The notes below the pieces were generated by a model that saw nothing but the letters and a program-made list of their open reading frames with translations, searched no databases and had not been told where the DNA came from. From contig CAVUVW010000020.1 in the NCBI GenBank assembly GCA_963745035.1, positions 32,001 to 96,000 of the forward strand: DNA of 64,000 nt. The letters run 5' to 3'. How positions within the stretch are numbered: the stretch's first letter is position 1; each line of letters opens with the position of its first letter. Source of the stretch: an uncultured delta proteobacterium. Lineage in GTDB: Bacteria > Desulfobacterota > Binatia > UBA9968. Positions 27,904 to 62,683 of this stretch are shown here, in pieces. A program made the position numbers and the translations under genes.

Positions 27904-27918
27904 GCAACCCCCGTGCCC
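27904..27918 (-). promoter_or_regulatory. sigma54 promoter (variant)
   Basis: GGGCAC-GGGGG-TTGC upstream of 27883. Confidence 0.55.
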
Positions 27919-28086
27919 GCGGCCAGGTCGCCGGCTATCCTTGTGGCCCTGGCTTTGAGGGTGATGGCTTCCTTCAATGCGTCATGGATTCGCAAAAGCG
28001 GGCAAGCGGTGACCCGCGCGAAATTGTCCGCGGCGCCGATCTTGTACACCCGAGGCGCCTGTTAACGAGGATTGTTCAACACCGCG

Positions 28087-28350
28087 TCATTTGATGGTGC
28101 GGCCCCGGAGCACGATGCCGCGTGGATCAGTGCATTCGCATGGCTCGCCGGCGGGTCCCAAACCATACGGACAAGTAAACCGCACGACGTTGCATTCCCG
28201 CTCGGTGAGATTATCGGCGATGCGCTCGAAAAAGCCGCGCGGCGGCTCGGACCGGAGCTTGGCATCAGCGGGACTGCCCCCCGAGCATGCCCAGAGCGAG
28301 CTTGTGGCGGCCAAGGCGAAAAAGATCGCCGCGAAATCCTTGAGCGACAT
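28087..28350 (-). CDS. Small Cys-rich lipoprotein
   Basis: Signal peptide with lipobox LWAC; C...CP...CEC. Confidence 0.6.
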   Translation of the reverse strand: MSLKDFAAIFFALAATSSLWACSGGSPADAKLRSEPPRGFFERIADNLTERECNVVRFTCPYGLGPAGEPCECTDPRGIVLRGRTIK

Positions 28351-28530
28351 AACGTCCGGCTACGTTCTGCCGATTGTACGCCTCAAAAGCGGCCTTGAAA
28401 ACTGTAAGTTTTGGGCAGCCTGTCGCCGGGGTGGCGAGATGGGTAAGCGCCGCAGGGCATCGTGCGCTGCTCCGCTACCAATTGGCGCTCGCCGCCTCGA
28501 AAGAGCGGCGAGCCGAACCCGCTGCGGCGC

Positions 28531-30463
28531 TCACGAAGGGCTGTCGTTCCACGCCCGCGGCTTATCGCGAAATGGATTTCTGTCCTTGTCCTTGCTTCCG
28601 TCGATTCTCCGGATCTTGAGAGCCGCCAATAGCTCCGGGCGCTCGACCACTTCCTTTTCCAGCAGCAGCTTGGCCACTTCTTCGAGCGCCGGGCGATGGG
28701 CCGCCAGAATCTCGCGAACCTTCTTCTGCGCTTCGATCAGAAGATTTTTGATCTCTTCATCGACCATGCGCGCGGTCTCGTCGCTGTACACTCTATTCCC
28801 GGCGGCTCCGGGAATCGGCAAAAATGGCGTAGTCCGCGGCGCCTCCAAAGCGACGATGCCTAACTTTTCGCTCATGCCGAACTGGGTCACCATGGTGCGG
28901 GCAATCTCCGTCGCCCTCTGCAGGTCATTCTGTGCCCCGGTGGACACGTCGCCAAAAACGATCTCCTCGGCGACCCTTCCGCCCAGCAGAGTGTAGATGC
29001 GCGCCAGCAGCTCCGTGCGGGTCATCAAGTAGCGGTCCTCGGTGGGCAGTTGCTGCGTGTAGCCGAGCGCGGACAAGCCGCGCGGGATGATCGAGATCTT
29101 GTTCACCGGATCGGCGCCGGGAACCAGCTCCGCGACCAGCGCGTGGCCGGTTTCGTGATAGGCCACGGTTTTTTTTTCGCGCGGGTTCATGACCCGATTC
29201 TTTTTCTGCAATCCAGCGACGACTCTCTCGATGGCCTCGTCGAAATCGCCGGTTTCCACCGCTTGCTTACCCTGACGCGCTGCCAGCAGCGCCGCTTCGT
29301 TGACGATGTTGGCCAAGTCCGCGCCGACGAATCCCGGCGTCTTGGCCGCGATGTGGGCGAGGTCAACCGAGCGCGCGACTTTGATTTTTTTCGCGTGCAG
29401 CCTGAGGATGCGCTCGCGCCCTTTGATGTCCGGTCTGATCGACCAGCACCTGGCGGTCGAATCGTCCCGGTCGCAGCAGTGCGGCGTCGAGAATCTCCGG
29501 GCGGTTGGTGGCGGCCATGATGATCACGCCCTGGTTCGGATCGAAGCCGTCCATTTCCGCGAGCAGCTGGTTGAGAGTTTGCTCCCGTTCGTCATGGCTC
29601 GACATGACGTTGATGCCGCGCGACTTGCCGAGGGCGTCGAGCTCATCGATGAAGACAATGCTCGGCGCATGCTGCACCGCCTGAGCGAAGAGATCGCGCA
29701 CCCGCGCGGCTCCCACGCCGACGAACATCTCGACGAAATCGGAACCGGAAATGCTGAAAAACGGCACCCCGGCCTCTCCCGCCACGGCGCGGGCCAGCAG
29801 GGTTTTCCCCGTGCCGGGTGGGCCGACCAGCAACACGCCTTTGGGAATGCGGCCGCCAAGCCGCTGATACTTCTGGGGTGTGCGCAGAAACTCAACGACC
29901 TCGGCGAGCTCCTCCTCCGCCTCATCGATGCCTTCGACGTCGGCGAATGTGACGCCGGTTTTCTTCTCGATATAAACCTTAGCTTTGCTTTTTCCGAGCT
30001 GCATCAAGCCGCCGCCCGAGCTCACACGGCGAAATAGATAAGTCCATAGCAAAAAGAACAAGACCACCGGCACGACCCACGAGAGCAGCGTCGGCAGCCA
30101 CTGGCTCACCATCTCGCCGCGAAACGGAATACCGGCGGCCTCCAACTCCGCGACCAGATCGTCCTCGCTTACCCGTACGGTCATGAACGGCAGCGGCGCC
30201 TTCGCCGCCTCGGCATCGCCGCGCCGCGCCTTGGCCCGCTTGGGCGGCAGCACTTCGGCCACGCCCTCCGGCTTAATCTGCCCGCGGATCGTGTCGTCGG
30301 TCACCACCAGATCGGTGACCAGTTTTTTTCTGACGAGATTTTTAAATTCGCTGTAGGAAATCGTTTCCGGCTGCGGCGATGCAAAATAGTATTGCAACAC
30401 AAACAGCATGAACAAGGCCACCACAAAGTAGCCGATCGAAAGCCGCTGTTTTCTCTTGTCCAA
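28531..30463 (-). CDS. ftsH: ATP-dependent zinc metalloprotease FtsH (frameshift near 29436)
   Basis: 2 [38 protein letters not shown]; split into ORFs 29363-30463 and 28531-29316. Confidence 0.93.
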
Positions 30464-30815
30464 TTGGTCCTCGCTGTTCTACGCTTCGGCAGCTCATCGG
30501 CGCGCGCCGCGATGGCGGCGAGTCGAAGCGATTATCTGGAGCGGCAAAGCCGCACAAGCCGCATTGGTGGGCGACGACTCCTTCGCGGAACTGAACACGG
30601 CTACGCCTACTGCGCGGCCACATTCTTGTCGGTGATCTAGCTCAACGCGCTCATTTTCGAATGTGCGACATGGGGTTGATTTCAGCTTCGCGCCGATTTG
30701 ATGGGAAGCTGCTTGATGACAACGCACCTTCCGTGCCACAACGGCCTCGCGAAAAATCGCCGGAACGGCGCTATGTGACGGGAGTTTAACGACAAGTCCG
30801 ATCAGGCGAACGAGC

Positions 30816-31274
30816 TCATGGGCGCGCCCCGGCTGACGAGATCGAAACGCGCAGAACGGCCTTACCGGCACCGCCGCGGCGTCGCTGCTTGCTCAAGCTT
30901 TTCCGCTGCGCAGCCGGGAAGCGGAGAGCTTCGCTCTGCTTGATGTTGCGCTCGCGCCACATTTTCAGGCCGGCGCGAATGTAGGCGGGTTCGAGATTGA
31001 GAATCTCACATAGATTTATAAACGAGAAATCCCATTTATGATCATTTTCCAAAAACCATTGATCGAGCTCTTTAAAGAGACGTCTTTCACGCCTCGTCCG
31101 GCAGTCGGCAAATTTCTGGTATTCACGGATCGCCTGCCAGAGAACGGCTTCAACCAACACATACTCGCCCATCTGGTGGCGCCACTGCCCGCCTGGCTCT
31201 TGCGCCGACAATGGAACTCGCGAACCGCCGTTGCCATCAAAGCTCGATTCCGCCGCGTACCTGTAAGCTCTCAT
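30816..31274 (-). CDS. Hypothetical protein
   Basis: AVL..AI..YQK...W...FSF.NLCE.L.LEP.YIR.GL; sigma54 motif upstream. Confidence 0.7.
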   Translation of the reverse strand: MRAYRYAAESSFDGNGGSRVPLSAQEPGGQWRHQMGEYVLVEAVLWQAIREYQKFADCRTRRERRLFKELDQWFLENDHKWDFSFINLCEILNLEPAYIRAGLKMWRERNIKQSEALRFPAAQRKSLSKQRRRGGAGKAVLRVSISSAGARP

Positions 31275-31309
31275 GCTGATTCTCTCCGAGAAATTTGAGC
31301 TGCGCCTCC

Positions 31310-31324
31310 GCAACGATCATGCCA
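31310..31324 (-). promoter_or_regulatory. sigma54 promoter
   Basis: TGGCAT-GATCG-TTGC. Confidence 0.75.
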
Positions 31325-31607
31325 CGATCGCCTCGCGCGGATTTCTAGAACAACCGCTCTCTCGCAAGAAAACTTCATTCCAAATTCTTCGTACACAACG
31401 GCTAATCTAGCAGCGGGTACGCCAGTCCTCCTCCGCGAAACAGCACGCGCGGCAGCCTCAGGTGCCGTTTTTTAGCCCGATAAAAACCGTCTCGATTTCG
31501 GGAATAATACCTTTCCTCTGTCGCTAACGTGGGACAATCGACTATCTAACAGCAAGGTTTGGGCTGAAAACTACTGAATTATTTTTCAATGAGAAAAATT
31601 TCCTTCA

Positions 31608-31622
31608 TGGTACATATTTTGC
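31608..31622 (+). promoter_or_regulatory. sigma54 promoter
   Basis: TGGTAC-ATATT-TTGC upstream of 31675. Confidence 0.7.
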
Positions 31623-31674: not shown

Positions 31675-32685
31675 ATGGATCACTCACATACATGGGCAGT
31701 GGTGCTGGCCGGAGGAGAAGGGACCCGCGTGCGGAGTTTCCTCCAGCAGTTTTGTGGCGGCAGCGGACTGAAGCAGTTTTCGACGATCATCGGACAACGC
31801 TCGATGCTCCGTTGCACCCTGGATCGGGTGGTTCAGCTCATTCCGCCGGAACGCGTCTTGATCGTCGTCAGCGCGCACCATCGCGAGGAGGTAGAGGACC
31901 AACTCGCTCATTGGCCGCGCGAGAACATCATTTACCAGCCTGCCAATCGCGACACCGCTCCGGGAATCCTTTTGCCGCTGGCGCACATTACCAATCGGGA
32001 TCCGGCGGCAACCGTGGTGGTTTTTCCATCGGATCACTTCATCCTCGACGAGGAATGTTTTATGGGCGCCGTGCAAAAGGCGCTGCTCGAGCTGCAAAGC
32101 AATCCCAGCCGGATGATTCTGCTCGGCATGCCGCCGCAGCTGGGCGAAGAGACCGAATACGGCTATATCGTCGGCACGGGCAAAAGCGCGCACGCCGAAG
32201 CCATTCCGGTCGCCGGGTTTGTCGAAAAACCGCCGCTAACTCAGGCCAAAGAGCTGATCCAGCGCGGCGCATTGTGGAATACCATGGTTTTCGCCGTCGA
32301 AAACGTCACTCTTTGGGACATAGTGCAGCGCACCGCGCCGATCCTCTACCACGCCTTTCGCCTGATCCAAATGAACTTGCGCGCCGGCTCCCCATCCCAA
32401 GCCGTGGAGCACATTTATCAAGCTATTCCCGCAGTGAACTTTTCCTCATCGATATGCGAGCCGCTTGCGGCGCGACTCTGCGTGCTGCCGGTGCCCGACG
32501 TCGGCTGGAGCGACTGGGGCACGGTGGGAAGCATCCTGCGAACGCTCAAGAAGCTCGGCGAGTTCGACGCGTTTTGCGCCCGCGCGGGAAAACCTCAGGT
32601 GCAGCCGGCATGGCAGAGTCTCGAAACGTGCCGCAAGCCGGGCCGCGCCGAGCCGTACGGCGCTCAGCGCGCCAGCCTCCACTAA
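31675..32685 (+). CDS. Sugar-phosphate nucleotidyltransferase (mannose-1-phosphate guanylyltransferase-like)
   Basis: VVLAGGEGTR, KQF, FPSDH, EYGYI, FVEKP, WSDWG. Confidence 0.88.
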   Translation: MDHSHTWAVVLAGGEGTRVRSFLQQFCGGSGLKQFSTIIGQRSMLRCTLDRVVQLIPPERVLIVVSAHHREEVEDQLAHWPRENIIYQPANRDTAPGILLPLAHITNRDPAATVVVFPSDHFILDEECFMGAVQKALLELQSNPSRMILLGMPPQLGEETEYGYIVGTGKSAHAEAIPVAGFVEKPPLTQAKELIQRGALWNTMVFAVENVTLWDIVQRTAPILYHAFRLIQMNLRAGSPSQAVEHIYQAIPAVNFSSSICEPLAARLCVLPVPDVGWSDWGTVGSILRTLKKLGEFDAFCARAGKPQVQPAWQSLETCRKPGRAEPYGAQRASLH

Positions 32686-32892: not shown

Positions 32893-33222
32893 CTACTTGG
32901 TCCTCTGCGCCGCGCCGTCGGCCACGACGAGATAGATCTCCCGGTTCGGCGACTGGCGCAGGAGCGGCGAGACTTTCTTCGTCCATTGCTGAAACGCCGC
33001 ATCCTCGGTGACTCGATGGATCTGCTTTTCCAGAGTTTCCAGATCGGGCGCGTCCTGGACGAACACCACGTTCGGCGCCTCCGGCGAAGCGAAATGGGTG
33101 TGCAGAATTCGCGCGTTTTGACCGCCGACGTTTTGCACCAGATGGAGCAGCGATTGCAGCTCGTTTTCCAGCTCCCCGGTTTTCCCGGGCAAGGTATGAA
33201 ACATCAGACTTGATGCGTACAT
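32893..33222 (-). CDS. Hypothetical protein, likely dimeric alpha-beta barrel
   Basis: 109 aa, AGGAG RBS, sigma54 motif upstream. Confidence 0.7.
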   Translation of the reverse strand: MYASSLMFHTLPGKTGELENELQSLLHLVQNVGGQNARILHTHFASPEAPNVVFVQDAPDLETLEKQIHRVTEDAAFQQWTKKVSPLLRQSPNREIYLVVADGAAQRTK

Positions 33223-33429: not shown

Positions 33430-33444
33430 GCAACAAACATGCCA
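33430..33444 (-). promoter_or_regulatory. sigma54 promoter
   Basis: TGGCAT-GTTTG-TTGC. Confidence 0.75.
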
Positions 33445-33614
33445 GCACACGATCTGCGCAATAGCTTCGAGCCCGCGCGAATGTCGGCATTCCGCTCTCG
33501 TATTCTGGTTCTGCCCGCCTCGGGTTGTCTCCAGCGTGGAACAGCCCGATGACAACCCGTCTTGGGTTTAAGACAGCCCCGAGCGGCGGTCAGCGCCGCC
33601 ACAGCGATCGTTTG

Positions 33615-33629
33615 CGGCATAGGCCTTGC
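33615..33629 (+). promoter_or_regulatory. sigma54 promoter of sucA
   Basis: CGGCAT-AGGCC-TTGC. Confidence 0.7.
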
Positions 33630-37008: not shown

Positions 37009-38274
37009 ATGCGGGTAGACATTAAAATTCCAAGCGTCGGCGAATCGATCACCGAAGTGGAGATCGGCGAATGGCTCAAGCAGGCCGGCGACGCGGTCAG
37101 CAAGAACGAAAATCTATTGCTGCTCGAAACCGATAAGGCGACCGTGGAGATCCGCGCGCCGCAAGCGGGCACGCTGGCCGAAGTGCTGAAGCAAAACGGC
37201 GAGAGCGCGGCGGTCGGCGAGGTGATCGGCCGCCTGGAGACCAACGGCGCCGGCGCCCAGGCCGCCCAATCCGAAGGCACGCGCGCCGAGAATCCGCCGC
37301 TGCAAAGCCCGACCCCGCCGGACCCGCCGTCGCCGTCGCCCGACCCGGCGCCGAGCGGCGCAGCGGAGACCGGCGACGGCGCCGCCGAGCAGCGGCTGGC
37401 GCCCGAAGAAGGGCCGAGCGACGGCGAGATGGAGATCATCGGCGCCAAAGAGGAAGCGGCGCAACAGGCCCAGGCTGCCGAGCCGGCGGCAGATCAGCAG
37501 CCGAGCATTGAAGGTCGCGGCGAAGAGGCGCACGAGTTCAGAGAAGCCCCCGCCGCACCACCGCCGCGCTCGGAAGGGCGCGACGAGGTCGTGCCGATGT
37601 CGGTGCTGCGCCGGCGCATCGCCGAGCGGCTCGTGGCGGCGCAACGCAACGCCGCGCTGCTGACGACCTTCAATGAGATCGACATGAGCGCGGTCATCGC
37701 GCTACGTCGCTCGCAAGGCGAAGCATTTCAAAGCCAGCACGGGATCAAGCTCGGCTTCATGTCGTTTTTCGTCAAAGCCGCGGTGGCGGCGCTCCGCGCC
37801 GTCCGGGAGATCAACGCCGAGATCGACGGCGACAAGATCGTCTATCACAACTATTACGACATCGGCGTCGCCGTCGGCGGCGGCAAAGGCCTGGTGGTGC
37901 CCGTGCTGCGCCGTGCCGAAGAGATGAGCTTTGCCGAGATCGAGCGCGCTATCGCCGATTTCGTTGCCCGCGCGCGCGACAACCGCCTGCGGCCCGACGA
38001 GCTGCAAGGCGGCACCTTCACCATCACCAACGGCGGCGTCTACGGCTCGCTGCTCTCCACGCCGATCATCAATCCGCCGCAGAGCGCGATTCTCGGTCTG
38101 CACGCGATCCAGGAGCGCCCGGTGGCGCGCGACGGCGCGGTGGTCGTGCGGCCGATGATGTACGCGGCGCTCACGTACGATCACCGCATCGTCGACGGCC
38201 GCGAGGCCGTGCTCTTTCTCAAGCGCATCAAGACGCTGATCGAAGAGCCGGCGCTCCTGCTGCTCGAGTCGTAG
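37009..38274 (+). CDS. sucB: Dihydrolipoyllysine-residue succinyltransferase E2
   Basis: Lipoyl ETDKAT, TTFNEIDM, YDHRIVDG. Confidence 0.96.
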   Translation: MRVDIKIPSVGESITEVEIGEWLKQAGDAVSKNENLLLLETDKATVEIRAPQAGTLAEVLKQNGESAAVGEVIGRLETNGAGAQAAQSEGTRAENPPLQSPTPPDPPSPSPDPAPSGAAETGDGAAEQRLAPEEGPSDGEMEIIGAKEEAAQQAQAAEPAADQQPSIEGRGEEAHEFREAPAAPPPRSEGRDEVVPMSVLRRRIAERLVAAQRNAALLTTFNEIDMSAVIALRRSQGEAFQSQHGIKLGFMSFFVKAAVAALRAVREINAEIDGDKIVYHNYYDIGVAVGGGKGLVVPVLRRAEEMSFAEIERAIADFVARARDNRLRPDELQGGTFTITNGGVYGSLLSTPIINPPQSAILGLHAIQERPVARDGAVVVRPMMYAALTYDHRIVDGREAVLFLKRIKTLIEEPALLLLES

Positions 38275-39436: not shown

Positions 39437-39665
39437 CGCGAAACCTGCGGTGACGACTCGGCTCCGCGCCCGTGGGGCGCAATCCTGGAGTCGTGAAGAC
39501 ACTCACGCCTGCCGCAAAGTCTTTTGCGTTCGGCGAGCCGTCGCTCCGCGGGCAATAATTCGTGAAACACCGGCGATCGCGATCGGTTCAGAAGCGGCAA
39601 AGCATTGTCTCTACGGCGGCAGCAGGATTGCGCGCGGTGAGGCGGATCGCTCTCAGGCTCTGGGT

Positions 39666-40020: not shown

Positions 40021-40035
40021 GCAATGCATATGCCA
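40021..40035 (-). promoter_or_regulatory. sigma54 promoter
   Basis: TGGCAT-ATGCA-TTGC. Confidence 0.75.
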
Positions 40036-40331: not shown

Positions 40332-40346
40332 TGGCTCCGCTTTTGC
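40332..40346 (+). promoter_or_regulatory. sigma54 promoter (variant)
   Basis: TGGCTC-CGCTT-TTGC upstream of 40485. Confidence 0.5.
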
Positions 40347-44130: not shown

Positions 44131-44145
44131 TGGCATATATGTTGC
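44131..44145 (+). promoter_or_regulatory. sigma54 promoter with no downstream CDS
   Basis: TGGCAT-ATATG-TTGC. Confidence 0.65.
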
Positions 44146-44256
44146 CGAAAGTGCGAAGCAGCGGTTACCCGAACCGGAAACTTCGGAGTCCTTAACGTGC
44201 GCCTCGAGTTCGCGCGGAAAGGGGTCTGGAGGCTGGCAAGAATCAGCTAGAGCTGC

Positions 44257-45144
44257 TTAGGGGAGAAGCGCGGATGGACAAGCGACGGATGGAGGGCGGC
44301 TGCGCGCCGCCCTCCATGCGGTGGTTTTAACTGAACGGGTACTTATTCTCTGCCGGTCGGCTTGGTCGCCGGGCCTGTGGTCTGGCCGCTTCTCGGGCGG
44401 GCTGCCGGCTTGAGTGCCGCGCTTGCTGACGCCTTTCGAGGTCTCCGGCTGCTGCGTCGTGCCTGAGCTCGAGGACTGACCCGGGCTCGTGGAGCTCGAG
44501 CCGGAGCCGCTGCCGCTCCCTATGCCGCTCGAATCCTTCGAAGAGCCGCGGCTACCGCTCGAAGAGCCGCTGCCCGACGAGCTCCCGGTTCCAGAAGAGC
44601 TACCCATACCGGAAGAACCGGAAGAGGAGCTTCCCATGCCCGATGAGCCGCTTCTGCTCGACGAACCCATACCCGAGGATGAGCTGGCTACGTCAACGCC
44701 GAGCGCGCTGGCGGTCTTTTCATCGATGCGCCCGCTGGCGGTCAGGTTGTTGGATTTTTGAAATTCCCGCAGGGCGCTTTGTGTTTTCGGACCCATCACG
44801 CCGTCCTCAGGACCCGGATCCATGCCTTTGCTCTTCAAGGCGGCTTGGACTTCTTTCACCTTTTCCTTGGACATGCTCCCGGCGCTTGCTCTGCGAGCGC
44901 TTCCCTCACTGCCACGATCGCTTTGCACGCTGCTGCCGCCTCGATCCGTTTGCATGCTGCCCGACGATGACCCGCGTTGGCTGCTGCTGCCAGTCGCGGA
45001 CGGATCGCTCGACTTCTGAGATTCACTGCCGCTCTTCGAGGATCCCGCGCCGCTCGAACCTCCGGTCTGCGTCCATGCGTGCGGTGCCATCACTAATACC
45101 GCGCCGCTCAGCACCAGACTCGATAAAACTTGCGTTTTCTTCAT
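44257..45144 (-). CDS. Secreted peptidoglycan-binding-domain protein with Ser/Gly low-complexity arms
   Basis: Signal peptide; VQAALKSKGMDPGPEDGVMGPKTQSALREFQK (PG_binding_1); the 3' end is uncertain. Confidence 0.82.
   Translation of the reverse strand: MKKTQVLSSLVLSGAVLVMAPHAWTQTGGSSGAGSSKSGSESQKSSDPSATGSSSQRGSSSGSMQTDRGGSSVQSDRGSEGSARRASAGSMSKEKVKEVQAALKSKGMDPGPEDGVMGPKTQSALREFQKSNNLTASGRIDEKTASALGVDVASSSSGMGSSSRSGSSGMGSSSSGSSGMGSSSGTGSSSGSGSSSGSRGSSKDSSGIGSGSGSGSSSTSPGQSSSSGTTQQPETSKGVSKRGTQAGSPPEKRPDHRPGDQADRQRISTRSVKTTAWRAARSRPPSVACPSALLP
44289..44317. terminator. GC-rich hairpin
   Basis: ATGGAGGGCGGC-TGCGC-GCCGCCCTCCAT. Confidence 0.55.
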
Positions 45145-45191: not shown

Positions 45192-45206
45192 GCAACCCCT
45201 ATGCCA
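45192..45206 (-). promoter_or_regulatory. sigma54 promoter
   Basis: TGGCAT-AGGGG-TTGC. Confidence 0.75.
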
Positions 45207-46615: not shown

Positions 46616-46630
46616 GCAAGAAATATGCCA
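46616..46630 (-). promoter_or_regulatory. sigma54 promoter
   Basis: TGGCAT-ATTTC-TTGC. Confidence 0.75.
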
Positions 46631-46906: not shown

Positions 46907-46921
46907 TGGCATTTTCTTTGC
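46907..46921 (+). promoter_or_regulatory. sigma54 promoter
   Basis: TGGCAT-TTTCT-TTGC. Confidence 0.7.
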
Positions 46922-52913: not shown

Positions 52914-53520
52914 GCTGCGTTTCCTTGACCAGGCTGACCAGGGTCGATGGAATTTTTTCGAGCGGCAGCACGAAATCGACGCCTCCGGTGGCGATCGCCG
53001 CGCCGGGCATGCCGAAGAATTCCGCGGATTGCTCGCTTTGCGCGATGACGATGCCGCCCATCTTCTTTATGGCCTTGACCCCCATCGAGCCGTCGCTTCC
53101 GGACCCGGAGAGAACCACGGCGATGGCCCGCTCTCTGAAGCTCGCCGCCACCGATTCGAATAATAAATCCGCTGAAGGACGCACAAAGTGGACTAGCTCG
53201 GACTGCGACAGCGAAAGGGTGCCGTCCGGATTGACCAGCAGATGGCGGTTCGGCGGCGCGATGTACGTCGTGCCCGGTTGCAATCGATCTCCTTCTTCGG
53301 CCTGCTTCACGTGCAGCCCGGTGCGCCGCCCCAGGATATCGGCCATCATGCTGCGGTGTCGCGGGTCGAGGTGCTGCACCACAACGAGCGTGGCGGGAAA
53401 GCCGCGCGGCAGCATCGTCAGCACTTCCCCTAGGGCGTGCAAACCGCCTGCGGACGCCGCTAGAGCGATGATGTTAAACAGGTGGCCGACGGGTCGCGCC
53501 GGATCGTCCTCGTTTGTAAT
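52900..53520 (-). CDS. cheB: Stand-alone CheB methylesterase
   Basis: AASAGG (upstream of the listed ORF start), VQH, RPSADLLF, LSGSGSDG, GMP; GGAGG then ATT at 53520. Confidence 0.88.
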   Translation of the reverse strand: MTNEDDPARPVGHLFNIIALAASAGGLHALGEVLTMLPRGFPATLVVVQHLDPRHRSMMADILGRRTGLHVKQAEEGDRLQPGTTYIAPPNRHLLVNPDGTLSLSQSELVHFVRPSADLLFESVAASFRERAIAVVLSGSGSDGSMGVKAIKKMGGIVIAQSEQSAEFFGMPGAAIATGGVDFVLPLEKIPSTLVSLVKETQHESR

Positions 53521-54407: not shown

Positions 54408-54422
54408 TGGCATCGCGCTTGC
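54408..54422 (+). promoter_or_regulatory. sigma54 promoter
   Basis: TGGCAT-CGCGC-TTGC. Confidence 0.78.
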
Positions 54423-54473: not shown

Positions 54474-55673
54474 GTGAGCTTGGACCTGATGAAAGAAAAA
54501 GGCGTCGCGCTGGACCAACAGAAGTTCGACTGGCGCGACATCGTGCGCGCGCCGACGAGCAAGTTGAACGATGACGCATTCACCCGAGTGCGCATCATTT
54601 TGATGAACGGCATCGAATCGGAGGCGCTGCGATTCCAGCACGCCTGCGCGCGCATGAACAAAGACCTGCAGCTCGCGCTGGCTCGTGTGCGGCGCGTAGA
54701 ACAGCATCAACAAACGCTCGTCAATTGGCTACTGCCCGCCGACCTATCCCCGCTGGAAACCACCATCGGCTTCGAGCAGGTCGCCATCGAGGTCACCGCC
54801 AGCGTCGCGCAGCACGAGCCCGACCCGTATCTCGCCCAGGTGTACCGCTTCGGACTGCTCGAGGATTTCGATCACCTGTACCGCTACGCGGCGCTCATGG
54901 ACCGCATGATGGGCTGCGATGCCAACAACATCTTGCAGAGCTACACCGACATTCTTCCGGGACGGCCAACGGCGGTCGAGCACCGCGCGCCCGAGGATGA
55001 TTTGCGCAAGCCTTACGACCGCCGCAAAGCGGCGCCGATCACCAAGCTAAACGCGGTCACGATTATGGGCGGCGAGCATCAGACTCATGATTATTACATG
55101 ACGATCGGCCCCATGTTCGCCGACCCGATTGCGCGACAATTGTACGCCGAGATTGCCTCAATTGAGGAACAGCACGTGACGCAGTACGAGTCGATCATCG
55201 ACCCGGAGGAGACTTGGCTGGAAAAGTGGCTGCTGCACGAGGCCGTCGAAATTTACAACTATTATAGCTGTCTCACCTACGAGACGAACCCGCGCATCAA
55301 GACCATCTGGCAGCGCTTCGTGGACTACGAACTCGGCCATCTGCATTTTGTCTTGGAGCAGTTCCAGAAATTCGACAAGCGCGATCCGGCTGAAATCCTT
55401 CCGGAGTCCCTGCCGGAGCCCATCGAATACAAAAGCCATCGGGAATTTGTCCGCAAGGTGCTGAGCGAGGAAGTCGATCTGCGCGCCCGCGGCGCGGAGT
55501 TCATCGACAAGGAGAAGGAGGAGGCCGACGCGCCATCGCAGATCTACCGGGCGCAAATGAATGCTAACGGCTCGCCTTCGGAAACGGTGGCGGCGGGCTA
55601 CCAATGGAAGCCTGGCACCGAGTTGGCGGAAGAGACCGCGGATATTCGCAAGCTGCAAAAAAAAGTCGCGTAG
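54474..55673 (+). CDS. Ferritin-like superfamily protein (probably tandem four-helix bundles)
   Basis: Repeated E..H motifs (EQH, EDFDH, EHQTH, EEQH, ELGH); AGGAG RBS. Confidence 0.7.
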   Translation: MSLDLMKEKGVALDQQKFDWRDIVRAPTSKLNDDAFTRVRIILMNGIESEALRFQHACARMNKDLQLALARVRRVEQHQQTLVNWLLPADLSPLETTIGFEQVAIEVTASVAQHEPDPYLAQVYRFGLLEDFDHLYRYAALMDRMMGCDANNILQSYTDILPGRPTAVEHRAPEDDLRKPYDRRKAAPITKLNAVTIMGGEHQTHDYYMTIGPMFADPIARQLYAEIASIEEQHVTQYESIIDPEETWLEKWLLHEAVEIYNYYSCLTYETNPRIKTIWQRFVDYELGHLHFVLEQFQKFDKRDPAEILPESLPEPIEYKSHREFVRKVLSEEVDLRARGAEFIDKEKEEADAPSQIYRAQMNANGSPSETVAAGYQWKPGTELAEETADIRKLQKKVA

Positions 55674-55688: not shown

Positions 55689-56588
55689 ATGGCAATGGGA
55701 ACCGAAGAAGCTAAGTCACAAGACAAGGATATCATCGATCTGCCCGAGGAGTTTTTCGTCAACCGGACCGGCATCATGCTCAATCCCACTCTTGGGGCGG
55801 AGCTGCTCCAGGGCGCCAAGGAAAAGGAAACAATACCGAGCTCGGAAGGCGACGGCGACGAGCTGCGGCTGGAACGGGCGGAGTATGTCGAGGAAGCGCT
55901 GCCGCTCGGCTCTTACCCGTCGGTAGTCGGTGGGATGATGGACGCGGGTCAGGACGAGGAGCCGTCGCCAGACGATAACCGCATGGCGGTCCTGCTCGAC
56001 AAGCTCGGCGAGCGCCTGGCCTTCGAACGGCAAGGGACCAGGCTGTATGAAGCCTTTATCCAAAAAGTCGAAACGCTGGCCAGCGCGGATGGGAACGGCC
56101 CGGATATCGACAATCTCCGCCACATCTGCGCGGAGGAGCTAGAACATTTCAAGCTGCTGCAAGAGACGATCGTGGAGCTCGGCGGCGATGCCACCGTGCA
56201 ATCCCCTTCCGCCGACGTCGCCGGCGTGCTTTCCCACGGCGCGCTGCAGATCGTGAGCGACCCGCGCACGACCGTGGCGCAGGGGCTGCAGGCTCTTCTT
56301 ACCGCTGAGTTGGTGGACAACGACGGCTGGGAGATGCTGCAAAACCTCGCCGAGCAACTGGGCCATGCCGATCTCGCGGCGGAGTGCGGCTCGGCTCTCG
56401 AGGAGGAGCGCGAACATTTGGAATCGGTGCGCACCTGGGCATCGAACCTGACGTTGAGCGAAGCCGTCGGCGCTGATGGCCTGATCGACGCCGAGGAACA
56501 GGAAGAGGAAGGAGAAACCGAGACGACAAGCCGCAGCTCCGGCAGGAAGAAGTCTTCCGGAAGCAAGAGCAAGCGCAAGAAAAAGTGA
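55689..56588 (+). CDS. Ferritin-like domain protein
   Basis: ERLAFERQGTRLY, EELEHF, AELVDNDGW, EEREHL. Confidence 0.82.
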   Translation: MAMGTEEAKSQDKDIIDLPEEFFVNRTGIMLNPTLGAELLQGAKEKETIPSSEGDGDELRLERAEYVEEALPLGSYPSVVGGMMDAGQDEEPSPDDNRMAVLLDKLGERLAFERQGTRLYEAFIQKVETLASADGNGPDIDNLRHICAEELEHFKLLQETIVELGGDATVQSPSADVAGVLSHGALQIVSDPRTTVAQGLQALLTAELVDNDGWEMLQNLAEQLGHADLAAECGSALEEEREHLESVRTWASNLTLSEAVGADGLIDAEEQEEEGETETTSRSSGRKKSSGSKSKRKKK

Positions 56589-56839: not shown

Positions 56840-56854
56840 CGGCACGGCAGTTGC
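56840..56854 (+). promoter_or_regulatory. sigma54 promoter
   Basis: CGGCAC-GGCAG-TTGC. Confidence 0.72.
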
Positions 56855-56870: not shown

Positions 56871-57776
56871 ATGTGGCAGTTTCTCAAGAAGACCGTTTAC
56901 AACTGGATCGACGATGAGCCGTTTGTCCTCGCTGCCGCGCTTTCGTACTACACGCTTTTTTCCCTGGCGCCGCTATTGACCATCGCGATCGCAATGGCCG
57001 GGCTGTTTTTCGGCCAGGAGGCCGCGCAAAACCAGGTCGTCGAAACCACGCGGGGACTGGTCGGCAAGGAAAGCGCGCAGGCGATCCAGGAGATGATTGA
57101 AAGCGCCGGCGAGAAGCCTGCGGCTGGGATCATATCGACTCTGTTCGGCGTCATCGCGCTGCTCTTCGGCGCCGGCGGCGTGGTCGGACAACTGCAAGCT
57201 TCTTTGAATAAAGTGTGGGGTGTGGCACCGAAACCTGGTCAGGGAGTATGGGGCTTCATCCGGCAGCGCTTTGTTTCCTACGCCATGGTGCTTTCGATCG
57301 GCTTTCTGCTGCTCGTGTCGCTGATCGTCAGCGCCGTACTGTCCGGCATGTCCCGGCTCCTCGGCAATATGTTCGGCGGCGCCGAGGCGCTGGTCCATGG
57401 ACTCGATCTACTCGTGTCCTTCGCCTTCATCACCTTGCTCTTCGCGATGATCTACAAGTTTCTTCCAGACGCGCGCATTCGCTGGAAGGACGTGTGGATC
57501 GGCGCCGTGTTCACGTCGCTGCTGTTCACGATCGGCAAATCGCTGATCGGGCTCTACCTCGGCAACAGCGGCGTGACCTCGGTTTACGGCGCCGCGGGGT
57601 CGCTGATCACGGTGCTTCTGTGGGTTTATTATTCCGCGCTGATCTTCTTCTTCGGCGCCGAGCTCACGCGGGTGTACGCTACCGAATACGGCTCCGGCGT
57701 GGCGCCCGCGGATAACGCGCGGCTGGTCGACGCCGAGAAGACTACGGAGACGGAGCGGAAATCCGCGCGCGCTTGA
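56871..57776 (+). CDS. YihY/BrkB family membrane protein
   Basis: AAALSYYTLFSLAP, YKFLPD, YGAAGSL..LLWVYYSA.IFFFGAE. Confidence 0.92.
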   Translation: MWQFLKKTVYNWIDDEPFVLAAALSYYTLFSLAPLLTIAIAMAGLFFGQEAAQNQVVETTRGLVGKESAQAIQEMIESAGEKPAAGIISTLFGVIALLFGAGGVVGQLQASLNKVWGVAPKPGQGVWGFIRQRFVSYAMVLSIGFLLLVSLIVSAVLSGMSRLLGNMFGGAEALVHGLDLLVSFAFITLLFAMIYKFLPDARIRWKDVWIGAVFTSLLFTIGKSLIGLYLGNSGVTSVYGAAGSLITVLLWVYYSALIFFFGAELTRVYATEYGSGVAPADNARLVDAEKTTETERKSARA

Positions 57777-57838: not shown

Positions 57839-58285
57839 CTAACTCGCTTTGCGAAGCCGCCGGTGCTTGGCCGTCTCGAGCTCCTCGCCGAGCTCTTGCA
57901 GCTCGCTCGCGTTCATCAGCTTGCGGACTTTGGGGAACATCATTTGTTCCTCTTCTTCTTCCGCATGATGCTCGATGTTGTCCGCCAACACTTTGAGCTT
58001 GGCTTTGAACTTTTCACTGGTCGAACCGAGCCGGGACATTTCGCGCAGCAGGGTCTTTACCTGCTTGTGCTCCTCGACCGATTCCAGGGTCATCTCCTTT
58101 AACTCTTCGTGCTCGGCCACCGCCGGATAAAAAATCGTCTCCTCGATGCGCGCGTGGATCTCGAGCTCGGCCTTGATCTCCTTGAAGAGCTGCCGCTGCT
58201 TTTTTTTGTCTTCCGTTTCCTTGGCCTGGGTCAGCAGTTGTTTCACCTTGTGGTGGTCCTGCTTCAATAACTCCAATGCGTCCAT
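57839..58285 (-). CDS. Hemerythrin-domain protein
   Basis: LKQDH, HARIEE..FYP, EEH, HHAEEEE..MFP. Confidence 0.9.
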   Translation of the reverse strand: MDALELLKQDHHKVKQLLTQAKETEDKKKQRQLFKEIKAELEIHARIEETIFYPAVAEHEELKEMTLESVEEHKQVKTLLREMSRLGSTSEKFKAKLKVLADNIEHHAEEEEEQMMFPKVRKLMNASELQELGEELETAKHRRLRKAS

Positions 58286-58331: not shown

Positions 58332-58346
58332 GCAAGGCACATGCCA
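58332..58346 (-). promoter_or_regulatory. sigma54 promoter
   Basis: TGGCAT-GTGCC-TTGC. Confidence 0.78.
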
Positions 58347-58497
58347 TGCCTGGCGATTTCCCGGAGCCCTCTCTACGCGGCGCGCGCGATTCCGGAGCAC
58401 CCTCTTCAGTGGCACATATTCAAGCGATCTTTTCTCCTTCTTGAGACAGACGACGCGCCGCGCGCGAATGTTTGCGCGCCGTGACGCGCGCTGCTCG

Positions 58498-58512
58498 TGG
58501 CATTTCGATTGC
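58498..58512 (+). promoter_or_regulatory. sigma54 promoter
   Basis: TGGCAT-TTCGA-TTGC. Confidence 0.78.
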
Positions 58513-58558: not shown

Positions 58559-58822
58559 ATGGAGACCCAACCTTACACCGTCAACGATCATCGGACCGAA
58601 GATCAATTCACCAAGAGCGTCGAAGAATACACCGCCGCCCTGCCGTCCTCCGCTTATCTGGCGATCGCCATTGCGGCGATGGCGGCATCGCTCGCGCTGC
58701 AAGTCAGCGGCCGGGAAAAGTGGGGCAACTTCATCGCCCAGTGGGTGCCCACGTGGCTCGTTATCGGTCTCTACAACAAGCTCGTCAAGCTCGAAGGACA
58801 CGACCGGCTCGACCGGTCTTGA
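58559..58822 (+). CDS. Small membrane protein, paralogue of 39666
   Basis: LPSSAYL...WGNFIAQWVPTWLVIGLYNKLVKLEG; AAGGAG RBS. Confidence 0.85.
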   Translation: METQPYTVNDHRTEDQFTKSVEEYTAALPSSAYLAIAIAAMAASLALQVSGREKWGNFIAQWVPTWLVIGLYNKLVKLEGHDRLDRS

Positions 58823-59072
58823 TACCCGGCATTCGCCGATCTTGGTGAGGAGGTGAGCTTTGTTTATTTAATGGAGCAAGAAGAGAATATTTCGAGTGCA
58901 GCTATTGCAGGTAGAGATTCAACTTCAAAAAAGAAGCGGCGAAACACGAAAGGAACTGTTCGAAACGAGACGGTTAAAACAGTTCGCGCGGCAAGGTTTG
59001 GCTACAAACCGGCTTAATGATGTCCAAGGCGAGTTTCTGTTTATCGTCTCCCAAAAGGTCGAAAGGTGAGCT

Positions 59073-59555
59073 ATGGAAAGCAGAGCCAAGTTTCTCGGCC
59101 ATCCCGCGCATCAGATGCTGATCGTTTTTCCGCTGGGACTGCTGGCGACCGCGGTGATATTCGACGTGATCTATCTTGTGGGCGGCGGGGAGAACATGGC
59201 GCTCGTCGCATACTGGATGATCGCCGCCGGTATCATCGGCGGCTTTCTCGCCGCGCCGTTTGGCTGGATCGATTGGTTCGCGATTCCGGCGGGGACGCGC
59301 GCCAAGTCCGTCGGGTTATGGCATGGCTCCGGCAATACGATCGTCCTGTTGCTTTTCATCGGTAGCTGGCTCCTGCGCCGCGATGTGCCGGACCGCCCGG
59401 AAGCGCTGGCGTTCGCGCTCTCGTTCGCGGGCGCAGGTTTGGCGTTGTTTACCGGCTGGCTGGGCGGCGAGCTGGTCGATCGCCTGAGCGTCGGCGTCGA
59501 CGACGGCGCTCACCCGAACGCGCCGAGCTCATTGTCGCGCCGCCCCGCCCATTGA
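59073..59555 (+). CDS. DUF2231 membrane protein
   Basis: GHPAHQMLIVFPLG, G.IDW, WHG..N, GWLGGELV. Confidence 0.85.
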   Translation: MESRAKFLGHPAHQMLIVFPLGLLATAVIFDVIYLVGGGENMALVAYWMIAAGIIGGFLAAPFGWIDWFAIPAGTRAKSVGLWHGSGNTIVLLLFIGSWLLRRDVPDRPEALAFALSFAGAGLALFTGWLGGELVDRLSVGVDDGAHPNAPSSLSRRPAH

Positions 59556-59590: not shown

Positions 59591-59605
59591 TGGCATGTTG
59601 CTTGC
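59591..59605 (+). promoter_or_regulatory. sigma54 promoter
   Basis: TGGCAT-GTTGC-TTGC. Confidence 0.78.
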
Positions 59606-59662: not shown

Positions 59663-59914
59663 ATGGGGATTATCGGATGGATATTGTTCGGCTTGGTTGT
59701 GGGAATTGTCGGAAAGTTCCTGATGCCGGGGCGCGATCCCGGAGGATTTATCCTGACAATCCTGCTCGGTATTGCCGGCGCGCTGCTCGGCGGATTCCTC
59801 GGCCAATCCCTTGGGTTTTACCGCGAAGGCGAGCCGGCGGGATTCCTCATGGCCGTCCTGGGATCGATCGTACTCTTGCTGCTTTATCGTTTGTTTCTCG
59901 GCAGGCGCGCCTAG
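59663..59914 (+). CDS. GlsB/YeaQ/YmgE family stress membrane protein
   Basis: IIGWILFGLVVG...MPGRDPGG...LGIAGALLGG. Confidence 0.9.
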   Translation: MGIIGWILFGLVVGIVGKFLMPGRDPGGFILTILLGIAGALLGGFLGQSLGFYREGEPAGFLMAVLGSIVLLLLYRLFLGRRA

Positions 59915-60409: not shown

Positions 60410-60853
60410 CTACTGGAACCGCCGATCCGGTGCGGTTTCCACCGGATCGTGGCCGTCGCCGCGGTCGCGGTGTTTGAAGAGCTTGGAAGCATAATCGCGC
60501 GCGAGCGCCACCGCCGTCGCGGTCACCACCCCACTCAGCATGCCGACCAGGCTCTGCGTGATCCCAGCGCGCTGCTGCTGGGCCGCCGCGCGCGCCGGCC
60601 AATCGTCAGGCAGCTCCAGTCGCGCCCTCGGCGTGGGGCGGCCGAGCACCAAGCCGCTCAGGAAATAGCCGGTGGCGACGGACAAGCCGATCATGAGCCA
60701 CGGGCGCCGCTCGGTCTGATAGTTGAGATCGAAAGAGCGCTTCACTTCCCGGATGGTTCCGTCCACGCGCTCTTCCAGGGTGGCGATCTTCTCCGCCATG
60801 CCGGCGCGGGTGGCTTCTATCTCGTGTCGTATTTCACGCTGCGTGTTATCCAT
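60410..60853 (-). CDS. DUF3618-like protein
   Basis: IRHEIEATRAGMAEKIATLEER...RPW plus TM. Confidence 0.7.
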   Translation of the reverse strand: MDNTQREIRHEIEATRAGMAEKIATLEERVDGTIREVKRSFDLNYQTERRPWLMIGLSVATGYFLSGLVLGRPTPRARLELPDDWPARAAAQQQRAGITQSLVGMLSGVVTATAVALARDYASKLFKHRDRGDGHDPVETAPDRRFQ

Positions 60854-61239
60854 CGTGCATCCTCTTTGGCGTTTTCAATGGTGGTCGTCGGCACCAGGTT
60901 GGTGTTAGCGGCGCGCCGCTTGCCGGCGAGCAGGACGGCGAGGCCTACCACCGACAGCGCCGCTCCGACGATGCCGTAGCATGCCCAGAGAGTGAGCTCG
61001 GTGTATTCCTCCAGCACATACACCACCGTAAACGACAGCAGAATTCCGCCCAACAACAAGCTTGCCGCGCCCACGCCGATCAACACCACGGTCGATTTGG
61101 CGTTCGCCATTTCCTCGCGCATCTCCAGGCGCGCGGCCGTGATCTCCTTTGAAATCAGATCACTGGCGTCGCGGAAAATGCCGCTGACGAGCGACGAGAT
61201 GCTCGGCTTTTTCGGTTCCTCCAGCCGGTAGTCTTGCAT
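60817..61239 (-). CDS. Phage-holin-family (YqjE-like) membrane protein
   Basis: SLV...DASDLISKEI..ARLE, 2 TM, P..TIE..KED.RW. Confidence 0.78.
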   Translation of the reverse strand: MQDYRLEEPKKPSISSLVSGIFRDASDLISKEITAARLEMREEMANAKSTVVLIGVGAASLLLGGILLSFTVVYVLEEYTELTLWACYGIVGAALSVVGLAVLLAGKRRAANTNLVPTTTIENAKEDARWITRSVKYDTR

Positions 61240-61258
61240 AAGAACCTCGCTTGCCGGC

Positions 61259-61615
61259 TCAGTGCCGGCGGCGCAGCGCCAGCAGCACACCGGCGGCGAC
61301 GCCGACCAGCATCGACGTGCCTGGGTGCTGGCGAATATATTGGCTGATCCGGCGGGTGATGTCTTCGTAGCGTCTGTCGGTGAAGTAGCTCGCGCCACGA
61401 TCCAACGTGTCGGCCAAGCGCGTTGCCGTGTCGTGGATCTTCGACTCCACGCGCGGCCCGCTCTCGCGGATCCGGCCGGCGAAATTTTTCATCTGACTAC
61501 CGACCTTGTCGGCGGTTCGGTGCGCCGCCGCGGCGGCGCGCTCGCGCGCTCTTTCGGAGTTTCTCGCCTCTTCGGAACGAGCCTCATTCAGATTTTCAAA
61601 CTCATCATGTTCCAT
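61259..61615 (-). CDS. ElaB/YqjD (DUF883)-like tail-anchored protein
   Basis: YIRQHPGTSMLVGVAAGVLLALRRR C-terminal anchor. Confidence 0.78.
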   Translation of the reverse strand: MEHDEFENLNEARSEEARNSERARERAAAAAHRTADKVGSQMKNFAGRIRESGPRVESKIHDTATRLADTLDRGASYFTDRRYEDITRRISQYIRQHPGTSMLVGVAAGVLLALRRRH

Positions 61616-61665: not shown

Positions 61666-61680
61666 GCAATAAAGATACCA
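61666..61680 (-). promoter_or_regulatory. sigma54 promoter
   Basis: TGGTAT-CTTTA-TTGC. Confidence 0.7.
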
Positions 61681-62018
61681 AAAGCCGACAAATCGCGTCG
61701 CCGTTTCATCTGCCAAGGCGAGCGCCCGCGGAACGAGTGCAGATGAGGCCGAGACATCGGCGAGGCGACTTGCGGCGTCTTCTCGGTGCCGCATATTTAC
61801 GTGATTAATTTCCGGCGTCGCGAGCGGGCAACGCCGCAAAAATTTTATGTCGCCCCACGTGCGGGACAGGTGTCCCGCGCGGAAATCAATCTCGATCTCA
61901 GTAGCTTGGCGCGCAAGCTGGATATTTTGTATCGTTTCGCGGACAGAGAAGTCTTTCCGCTTAGCAGCTATGGGACACAACCTGGTCATTTAACCGCGGA
62001 TTGTCCGCGTTTATGCCG

Positions 62019-62033
62019 TGGTACGTCCGTTGC
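62019..62033 (+). promoter_or_regulatory. sigma54 promoter of csbD
   Basis: TGGTAC-GTCCG-TTGC. Confidence 0.75.
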
Positions 62034-62073
62034 AAAATGATGAGCTATCAGAATTTGAAGGAGGCAAAAAACC

Positions 62074-62268
62074 ATGAACTGGGATCAGGCAGCAGGAAAC
62101 TGGAAGCAGTTTAAGGGCAAAGTCAAAGAGCAGTGGGGCAAGCTCACCGACGACGAACTCGATGAAGTCGCCGGCAAGCGCGATCAACTCGTCGGAAAGA
62201 TTCAAAAACAGTACGGAATCAGCAAGGAAGAAGCCGAGCGCCAAGTAAAGACCTGGGAAACTCAATAG
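62074..62268 (+). CDS. csbD: CsbD/YjbJ family stress protein
   Basis: MNWDQ..GNWKQFKGKVKEQWGKLTDD...GKIQKQYG. Confidence 0.93.
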   Translation: MNWDQAAGNWKQFKGKVKEQWGKLTDDELDEVAGKRDQLVGKIQKQYGISKEEAERQVKTWETQ

Positions 62269-62295
62269 TCTTCAGTTCACCCTTTCCCGCCACCG

Positions 62296-62332
62296 TCGGA
62301 CCGGCAGCGAAAACCCTTCGCTGCCGGTCCGA
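62296..62332 (+). terminator. Hairpin after csbD
   Basis: TCGGACCGGCAGCGAA-AACCC-TTCGCTGCCGGTCCGA; weak U-tract. Confidence 0.55.
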
Positions 62333-62446
62333 TCCTTCCAGATTAGCACGGACAACGCCGGGCTCTTCTTCCGTGGTTCACGTCTTAGAATGCTAAGCAG
62401 GAATCCATTCTGGAGTGAATTCTGGAGTGACAAAACGTTAGCGTTC

Positions 62447-62567
62447 CGTCATACCCGCGCTTCGACGTTGCTCAGGATAAACTCCGGCGGGTATCCAGCT
62501 AATTGCGGCGGAGAACAAACCTGGATTCGTTGCGCGGGAACGACGAATCGTGAGGAAAACGTGCCGA
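62447..62567. repeat. REP-like element related to 36608-36706
   Basis: Same arms and flank GACGAATCG..GGAAAACGTGCCGA, with an extra loop insert. Confidence 0.75.
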
Positions 62568-62668
62568 GGAAAATCTGCATTCATCTTCCAAAGCTTATGA
62601 ATCACTCCTTTGAAAAATGCCGCTAGCGAAGATTTCTCACTTCGTTCGAAATAACAAGTGAATCACCG

Positions 62669-62683
62669 TGGCATATGCCTTGC
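62669..62683 (+). promoter_or_regulatory. sigma54 promoter
   Basis: TGGCAT-ATGCC-TTGC. Confidence 0.75.

Follow-up and report, generated by a model that had tools for sequence, protein, structure and literature searches.

What controls a chromosomal region in which one short motif, YGGYAY-N5-TTGC, recurs in front of gene after gene? The question is raised by a 64,000-nucleotide stretch of DNA from an uncultured Binatia bacterium (GenBank assembly GCA_963745035.1, contig CAVUVW010000020.1, positions 32,001 to 96,000 of the forward strand), hereafter the window, whose nearest named relatives are 'Candidatus Binatia bacterium' metagenome-assembled genomes (MAGs) with 75% identity in DnaX and 83-84% in a ferritin-like protein. 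We put at roughly 0.7 the probability that the motif marks an island of ~19 short transcription units that encode general-stress-type proteins, each with its own sigma-54 promoter, and that are co-induced through one or more enhancer-binding ATPases. That the sites are sigma-54 promoters is, from their sequence, a highly likely part of this reading, and it is very probable that they establish a wiring of general-stress-type genes particular to this lineage.

Exact matches to the motif number 18 in the window, compared with a mean of 1.21 and a maximum of 5 in 100 dinucleotide-preserving shuffles. Of these, seventeen fall in the interval 31310-62683, and the remaining one is at 12273. A preliminary description of the window had reported this same distribution and had estimated about one site by chance, and both figures held. 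Only a spacer of 5 gives 18 matches, whereas spacers of 2, 3, 4, 6, 7, 8 and 9 give 1, 0, 1, 3, 3, 3 and 0 in the window, and eight patterns with scrambled half-sites give 0-2 matches each.

A count matrix (position weight matrix, PWM) derived from the 18 sites has the consensus tcgTGGCATaT-N3-TTGCt(c/g)(a/c). Its GG and GC are ten bases apart, which is the -24/-12 architecture, and the A of the -24 box is invariant (18/18). The textbook sigma-54 consensus is TGGCAC-N5-TTGCW; at the sixth position of the -24 box, 14 of the 18 sites carry T rather than C. Judged by its letters, the derived consensus is a canonical sigma-54 -24/-12 promoter. Positions outside the searched pattern are conserved as well (T at -3, C at -2, G at -1, T at +7, and the T after TTGC), in keeping with the sigma-54 consensus. 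The consensus of the stress sigma factor EcfG, GGAAC-N16-17-CGTT, was used as a test for a different stress promoter and had 0 matches in the window, while a sigma-70-like consensus was found 4 times between 44 and 64 kb compared with 5.5 expected, and so shows no excess. Two near-matches had also been listed beforehand. One of these, GGGCACGGGGGTTGC at 27904-27918(-), was recovered as such; the other, TGGCTCCGCTTTTGC at 40332-40346(+), is present and weak because it lacks the A found in every exact site. A further near-match, TGGGATGTCGATTGC at 5247-5261(-) (PWM 19.1), ends 5 nt from the 5' end of the signal recognition particle (SRP) RNA gene (5144-5242) and is probably a chance occurrence, since it is too near that gene for a sigma-54 start site.

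The placement of the sites was read from a gene map based on third-position GC, with start codons then corrected from the sequence. In this gene model coding sequence takes up 75% of the region from 27.9 to 62.7 kb, and even so each of the 17 exact cluster sites falls between genes; for 16 of them a start codon follows on the same strand at a distance of 13-207 nt. The exception, 44131(+), has no open reading frame (ORF) downstream. The earlier statements that the sites are intergenic and that all but one point into the next gene are thus borne out. Five back-to-back pairs 151-338 bp apart (31310/31608, 33430/33615, 46616/46907, 58332/58498 and 61666/62019) are arranged so that one activator-bound region could serve both directions. 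The first 27.9 kb, with recR, ybaB, dnaX, a PHO4 transporter gene, phoU, the SRP RNA gene and two tRNA-Ser genes, has a single exact site, that at 12273. A comparison with housekeeping genes, which the preliminary description had proposed, is possible within the window and agrees: no exact site stands before recR, ybaB, dnaX, pho4 or phoU in the first 27 kb.

Which genes lie behind the sites? Pfam supports CsbD, Transgly_assoc (GlsB type), BrkB/YihY, two BON proteins, hemerythrin, SucA and Metallophos among the targets, and the second of two adjacent ferritin-like genes matches Ferritin_2; these entries of the original target list stand. The remaining entries are weaker. The first ferritin-like gene has weak matches to di-iron families and, in a fold search, resembles ferritin-like bundles weakly and without significance. 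The ElaB-like label comes from architecture, a charged helical N-terminus with a C-terminal membrane anchor in the ElaB/YqjD shape, and Pfam DUF883 has no match in this 118-aa protein. The GT4 glycosyltransferase is a target only through the weak near-match, and NCBIfam gave no name to any small target ORF. General-stress gene content is present as CsbD, BON/OsmY, GlsB, ferritin-like and, by architecture, ElaB-type proteins. In model bacteria such gene sets are placed under RpoS, SigB or EcfG.

The wiring was then sought in other genomes. A scan of species-representative genomes with the 399-aa ferritin-like protein (54474-55673) gave 80 loci, of which 79 could be scored upstream, with a PWM score of at least 12 within 300 nt counted as a site (background 99th percentile 13.0, 95th 8.4). 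The ferritin-like gene has such a site in 14 of the 79 loci, and 10 of these fall among the 14 loci with at least 80% protein identity (L001, L003, L004, L005, L006, L008, L009, L011, L012 and L017). The other four are L035 (labelled Methylomirabilota), L073 (labelled Myxococcota), and L029 and L032, which are labelled otherwise. In L020, at 75% identity, the upstream site is exact and scores 8.7, and the 21 kb of the locus hold 7 sites. Motif density is 23 sites in 135.6 kb (10.9 per 64 kb) in the 14 loci at or above 80% identity and 27 sites in ~1,005 kb (1.7 per 64 kb) in the other loci without L020. Eleven Sorangium loci that score ~13 were discounted, as the match overlaps the start codon and conserved coding sequence.

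Beyond the ferritin-like gene, the exact motif stands before BON genes (L005, L009, L017 and L056), hemerythrin (L010 and L031), GlsB (L002) and MlaC (L001 and L004), and in L020 before genes for an alcohol dehydrogenase, a thiamine pyrophosphate enzyme, a PRC-barrel protein and a DUF2391 protein. Gene order varies between genomes and the motif remains at operon heads; L008, for example, has a single unit of ferritin-like, ferritin-like, hemerythrin and small ORF, and in L010 hemerythrin is followed by YihY. A five-genome alignment upstream of the BON gene (46616 site, alignment A3) has a mean identity of 57%; GTGGCA and TTGC are its sole stretches longer than one column in which nothing varies, and six isolated columns are invariant besides. 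This pattern is expected of a promoter under selection and argues against chance, a dispersed repeat or inheritance of the whole region. TGGCAT and TGGCAC alternate between orthologous promoters. Collectively, the wiring recurs before the same families in independent genomes from Binatia, some Myxococcota and some Methylomirabilota MAGs. Seven annotated relatives' loci contain, as neighbours, OtsA-OtsB, Ku, LigD, PolX, GlgE/TreS/MalQ, a cyclic di-AMP cyclase, HtrA, CBS proteins and a P-type ATPase, and these gene names suggest a desiccation or dormancy flavour for the neighbourhood.

From the established properties of sigma-54, the island at 31-63 kb would operate as follows. Sigma-54 RNA polymerase would sit as a closed complex on promoters of the form TGGCAT-N5-TTGCt until a stress signal reached at least one AAA+ enhancer-binding ATPase with its gene in another part of the genome, and such an ATPase would then remodel the closed complex and allow transcription. 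The outcome would be a tight-off, strongly-on co-induction of the ~19 units. Their predicted products would act largely in the envelope or periplasm (the two BON proteins, a PG-binding protein, YihY/BrkB, the GlsB-type protein, and the ElaB-shaped protein with its holin-X-like partner). Others would be CsbD, hemerythrin, the two ferritin-like di-iron proteins, SucAB, and sugar-nucleotide and phosphoesterase enzymes, together with a possible FtsH paralogue and topoisomerase IB. The motif, its excess and placement, the identity of the target genes and the recurrence of the wiring in other genomes are direct observations; from them we infer the binding of sigma-54, the existence of an activator and the coordination of induction by stress.

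Several results weigh against this proposal. Neither PF00158 (Sigma54_activat) nor any sigma-54 domain was found in the 162 window ORFs scanned, and the six-frame translation of the window has no GAFTGA-type loop, which agrees with the preliminary description in that the window has no enhancer-binding ATPase. No RpoN-box peptide was found in the window or the 80 loci, and no activator in the loci of the 7 annotated relatives. Within the island, the glyoxalase, the CheB/CheR-PAS genes, the GDE-like gene and three small ORFs have no site. Four predicted leaders, those of the receiver, first BON, YihY and phosphoesterase genes, are only 2-10 nt long, so that either the start codons are misplaced or the transcripts are nearly leaderless, and the YihY site itself scores low (PWM 11.1). 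Nor is the wiring universal even for the anchor gene, since two of the 14 closest loci (L007 and L013, from Binatia, 64% GC) have no site at all and Sorangium, Archangium and Nitrospira have none upstream of the ferritin-like orthologue. Exact inverted dyads with half-sites of 4-6 nt and spacers of 0-16 were not above Markov controls upstream of the promoters, and the best motif of an expectation-maximization (EM) search with one occurrence per sequence (OOPS), CGCGCGAATGTC, was marginal, with a log-likelihood of 47.7 compared with a control maximum of 42.6.

How might such promoters be activated? An activator may be encoded elsewhere in the genome, outside these 64 kb. The Pfam and signature-peptide search of the window and the loci found a single one, a GAFTGA enhancer-binding protein at 1270-1320(+) of the Nitrospiraceae locus L024, ~2 kb upstream of the ferritin-like gene, in a locus without the strict motif. 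K-mer counts likewise gave no shared enhancer site upstream of the promoters, so that the common activator site whose search had been suggested at the outset did not emerge convincingly by k-mers, dyads or EM. Neither ATTCGCGCG nor TTCGCGCG is an enriched word in the window. In a post hoc observation, four strong promoters (33430, 40021, 44131 and 58498) carry TTCGCGCG, in either orientation, 29-33 nt upstream of the -24 box (occurrences at 33474-33481, 40069-40076, 44091-44098 and 58461-58468), and in L001, L003-L006, L009 and L017 a related CGCGAATGT/AATGTYGCAA element precedes the ferritin-like promoters by 45-55 nt. These elements, noticed after the fact, are possible sites for an activator or an architectural protein. 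Control could lie with one activator that has a degenerate site, with several activators, or with an activator acting without DNA binding; activators that work without DNA binding occur in other bacteria.

The option of several activators leads to a different account of the whole, in which the promoters are genuine sigma-54 promoters but belong to more than one regulon. Subsets of the neighbouring units would answer to different enhancer-binding proteins, and each of these proteins would have a separate signal such as oxygen limitation, envelope damage, osmotic stress or carbon status. We consider this unlikely, albeit worth serious attention. It would explain why no common upstream site rises above controls and why the targets are mixed, with SucAB and topoisomerase IB beside envelope proteins. 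It also has precedent, as related lineages use many specialised activators, with 37 in Desulfovibrio vulgaris (PMC4641369) and an NmpR protein in Myxococcus xanthus that controls only seven promoters (PMC11841059). However, 17 sites in 35 kb with a near-identical extended sequence would be unusual for unrelated regulons, the BON, hemerythrin, ferritin-like, GlsB and YihY genes travel together with the motif in other genomes, and the post hoc placement of TTCGCGCG at four promoters also speaks for something shared.

The motif could instead be the element of another DNA-binding protein or sigma factor that resembles a sigma-54 promoter by coincidence. The DNA searched showed no rpoN, and no activator turned up in the window or in the seven annotated relatives' loci; the T in place of C at the sixth -24 position in 14 of 18 sites fits this idea as well. 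We nevertheless hold it to be very improbable: both invariant dinucleotides, GG and GC, are matched at the exact spacing, and the motif is asymmetric, always directed at a gene, tolerant of no other spacer and placed at promoter distance from start codons. The alternation of TGGCAT and TGGCAC between orthologous promoters is also what is expected for sigma-54. As for base composition, a dispersed repeat or plain chance as the source of the excess, we regard such an origin as next to impossible and found no point in its support. None of the 100 shuffles reached 18 matches, the flanks of the sites are mutually unrelated, the spacer and scramble controls were clean, and the motif is kept across genomes while its flanks diverge; together with the BON upstream alignment these results refute it.

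The individual sites are described here in order along the window. The outlying site, TGGCACTTTGATTGC at 12273..12287(+) (PWM 25.5), is outside the cluster, 81 nt before a hypothetical 95-aa ORF (12369-12656) that has no family match. It belongs to a segment of lower GC (0.50-0.54) between 9000 and 25000 that also holds an aquaporin gene (10461-11219), an integrase fragment (11413-11658), a tRNA-Ser gene (17291-17382), a fragment of the C-terminus of a DNA ligase (17480-17803) and many family-less ORFs, and that looks like a decayed integrated element. A receiver-only response regulator (27449-27883(-)) has its ATG at 27883, 20 nt downstream of the near-match GGGCACGGGGGTTGC at 27904..27918(-). 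The regulator has conserved single-domain homologues that are 70-95% identical, the named ones from Binatia, in a search limited to near-equal lengths. A fusion of a cytidylate-kinase-like domain with a BON domain (26368-27288(-)) follows on the same strand, behind the same near-match, and the pair may feed into or out of the regulon.

The first divergent pair consists of the site at 31310..31324(-), before a hypothetical 152-aa ORF (30816-31274(-)) and then a split FtsH on the same strand (29363-30463 and 28531-29316), and the site at 31608..31622(+), before a sugar nucleotidyltransferase (31692-32685(+)). Three genes of the window are each present as two ORFs: FtsH at 28531-30463(-), with separate AAA and M41 halves, the GDE-like glycosidase at 41591-43790(-), in overlapping frames, and the glyoxalase at 48110-48863(+), as overlapping ORFs. 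These may be frameshifts, pseudogenes or assembly errors. In the second pair, 33430..33444(-) (PWM 25.9) is ~207 nt before a hypothetical 109-aa ORF (32893-33222(-)) and 33615..33629(+) (PWM 27.0) is 58 nt before the ATG of SucA at 33688 (to 36453), with SucB (37009-38274) downstream. The site at 40021..40035(-) (PWM 27.8) precedes a 96-aa ORF (39666-39956(-)) and then topoisomerase IB (38228-39502(-)), and the weak near-match TGGCTCCGCTTTTGC at 40332..40346(+), not among the PWM matches above 8, is 138 nt before the GT4 glycosyltransferase (40485-41585(+)). Two sites follow, a strong one at 44131..44145(+) (PWM 29.2), with no ORF downstream, and one at 45192..45206(-), 47 nt before a secreted Ser/Gly-rich PG_binding_1 protein (44257-45144(-)).

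The two BON genes are divergent, with a site at 46616..46630(-) before one (46181-46594(-)) and a site at 46907..46921(+) 58 nt before the other (46980-47909(+)). Between these and the next site, a CheR-PAS-PAS protein is encoded between two CheB methylesterase domains at 50421-53442(-), none with a sigma-54 site; no adjoining kinase domain was found, and the set may be a methylation-dependent sensor. The site at 54408..54422(+), whose orthologous promoter is present in relatives, is 51 nt before the ferritin-like pair (54474-55673 and 55689-56588), and the low-scoring CGGCACGGCAGTTGC at 56840..56854(+) is 16 nt before the ATG of YihY/BrkB (56871-57776). Next are the divergent sites at 58332..58346(-), 46 nt before hemerythrin (57839-58285(-)), and at 58498..58512(+), before two small ORFs (58559-58822 and 58896-59069) and a DUF2231 membrane protein (59073-59555). 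In tblastn searches, the small target ORFs at 39666-39956(-) and 58559-58822(+), of 96 and 87 aa, hit shared regions in L008, L010 and L012 (43-47% and 67-78% identity) and are therefore paralogues of one uncharacterised small-protein family. The best-scoring site of all (PWM 32.5), at 59591..59605(+), is 57 nt before the Transgly_assoc (GlsB/YeaQ-type) gene (59663-59914). The last divergent pair comprises 61666..61680(-), 50 nt before the ElaB-shaped, tail-anchored 118-aa protein (61259-61615(-)), which is followed by genes for a holin-X-like protein (60817-61398) and a protein with a weak DUF3618 match (60410-60853), and 62019..62033(+), 40 nt before CsbD (62074-62268) and then a 78-aa ORF (62390-62626). 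The series ends at 62669..62683(+) (PWM 28.4); 13 nt further on, the metallophosphoesterase starts with a GTG at 62697 (to 63479), and an NTP_transf_5 gene (63484-63999) comes after it.

The site without a gene, 44131, is followed by a structured region of ~170 nt (44157..44330(+)) that has a fold z-score of -2.93 and no ORF, and that ends in a terminator-like GC hairpin and U tract at 44305-44323. Antisense to the PG_binding gene over the final ~70 nt (3' end) of that gene, the region has no family in Rfam. Its sequence features make it a candidate sigma-54-dependent small RNA.

The anchor of the comparison, the 399-aa ferritin-like protein, is itself unusual. It is 66-86% identical across Binatia, Myxococcota, Nitrospirota and Methylomirabilota, with ~180 invariant residues in 16 sequences, and it has no Pfam or NCBIfam family. 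A sequence search of solved structures with both ferritin-like proteins gave nothing below E = 0.04. AlphaFold (AF2) produced a best model of eight long helices at a predicted local distance difference test (pLDDT) score of 83, with the other four models at 39-57, and this model had no match in the PDB at E <= 0.001. Foldseek gives high probability to ferritin-like four-helix bundles, matched over half of the protein, and the ESM Atlas offers only unnamed 'ferritin-like' and 'DUF455-like' clusters. A protein conserved in four phyla without a curated family or a solved relative deserves study in its own right.

How does the island compare with known systems? It resembles classical sigma-54 and enhancer-binding systems in its TGGCA(C/T)-N5-TTGC(T/A) sites, with GG and GC ten bases apart, in their directionality and in their promoter distance. 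It differs in having no activator gene beside any of the ~19 promoters and no identified enhancer site, and in its targets, since CsbD, BON, GlsB, ElaB-shaped and ferritin-like proteins are not classical sigma-54 themes. Sigma-54 has been viewed as a controller of the cell exterior (PMC3162934), and the many envelope targets found here would suit that theme. By content, the island resembles the RpoS regulons of Enterobacteria, the SigB regulons of Firmicutes and Actinobacteria and the EcfG regulons of Alphaproteobacteria, with which it shares CsbD/YjbJ, BON/OsmY, GlsB/YeaQ, ElaB/YqjD-type, ferritin-like and PRC-barrel proteins and, as neighbours in the relatives' loci, trehalose synthesis and Ku/LigD. 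Those three factors belong to the sigma-70 family and use -35/-10 promoters, whereas the promoters here are of the enhancer-dependent -24/-12 class.

Small sigma-54 stress regulons are already known. In D. vulgaris, the sigma-54-dependent response regulator DVU3305 controls operons for membrane and hypothetical proteins that rise at high pH, in heat shock and in stationary phase (PMC3333781, PMC4641369), and its authors name it a modulator of general stress responses (PMC3333781). The likeness is the link between sigma-54 and general-stress-type genes. The DVU3305 system has few operons, which lie beside the activator, a kinase and a Lon-type regulator and have UspA-domain targets, whereas the island has ~19 promoters, different target families and no adjacent activator, kinase pair or Lon domain. 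No Lon domain was found in the window, and its sole kinase/receiver pair (15279-16820) is outside the cluster. The NmpRSTU system of M. xanthus is described as an oxygen-limitation sigma-54 regulon of seven promoters, and its members include a P-type ATPase, a universal stress protein, a hemerythrin and a CBS protein (PMC11841059). A hemerythrin target is shared, as are CBS and P-type ATPase genes in the relatives' loci; the cbb3 oxidase and heme synthesis on which, by that account, the NmpR regulon is centred are absent here. GCGCA-N5-TGCGC, the site bound by NmpR, shows no enrichment: the window has 9 matches at up to 1 mismatch, compared with 13.05 expected. Two of these matches are near sigma-54 sites, as 33445 abuts the 33430 site and 43914 is ~215 nt upstream of the 44131 site. 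What sets the island apart is the scale (~19 promoters in 35 kb), the gene content and the lack of an adjacent activator. In its main text, a 2025 survey covering sigma-54 regulons from 1,628 organisms does not use 'general stress', CsbD, OsmY, desiccation or Binatia (PMC12316311), and a term search of the reference genomic study of Binatota gave no mention of sigma factors (PMC8262859). Our literature search turned up no report connecting Binatota to sigma-54, nor one connecting sigma-54 to a regulon of the csbD/osmY/elaB type.

The preliminary description had gone further and proposed an alternative general stress or dormancy response built on sigma-54. The promoter-like sites, the stress-type targets, the recurrence, the site-free housekeeping genes and the lack of an EcfG motif or of a sigma-70-like excess agree with a general stress response built on sigma-54, which is a reasonable hypothesis, while dormancy is suggested only by the relatives' neighbours (OtsAB, Ku, LigD and GlgE/TreS). 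In its widest form, the idea is that Binatia and some Myxococcota and Methylomirabilota run their general stress or dormancy response via sigma-54 and a master ATPase and not via a stress sigma factor of the sigma-70 family, which we offer as a tentative and rather doubtful extension. The choice of factor in charge of the general stress response is one of the regulatory traits that define major bacterial groups, and for most uncultured soil phyla it is unknown. If the extension is true, a fourth general stress architecture would join RpoS, SigB and EcfG, an all-or-none, ATP-gated switch that includes a sigma-54-dependent small RNA. A dense and conserved sigma-54 regulon of general-stress proteins would mean that the enhancer-dependent promoter class can take over the general stress role. 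Such a regulon would also provide, in the PWM, a sequence handle with which to predict the stress regulons of Binatia and their neighbours from metagenomes, and it would point to an activator as the master survival switch of an abundant soil lineage.

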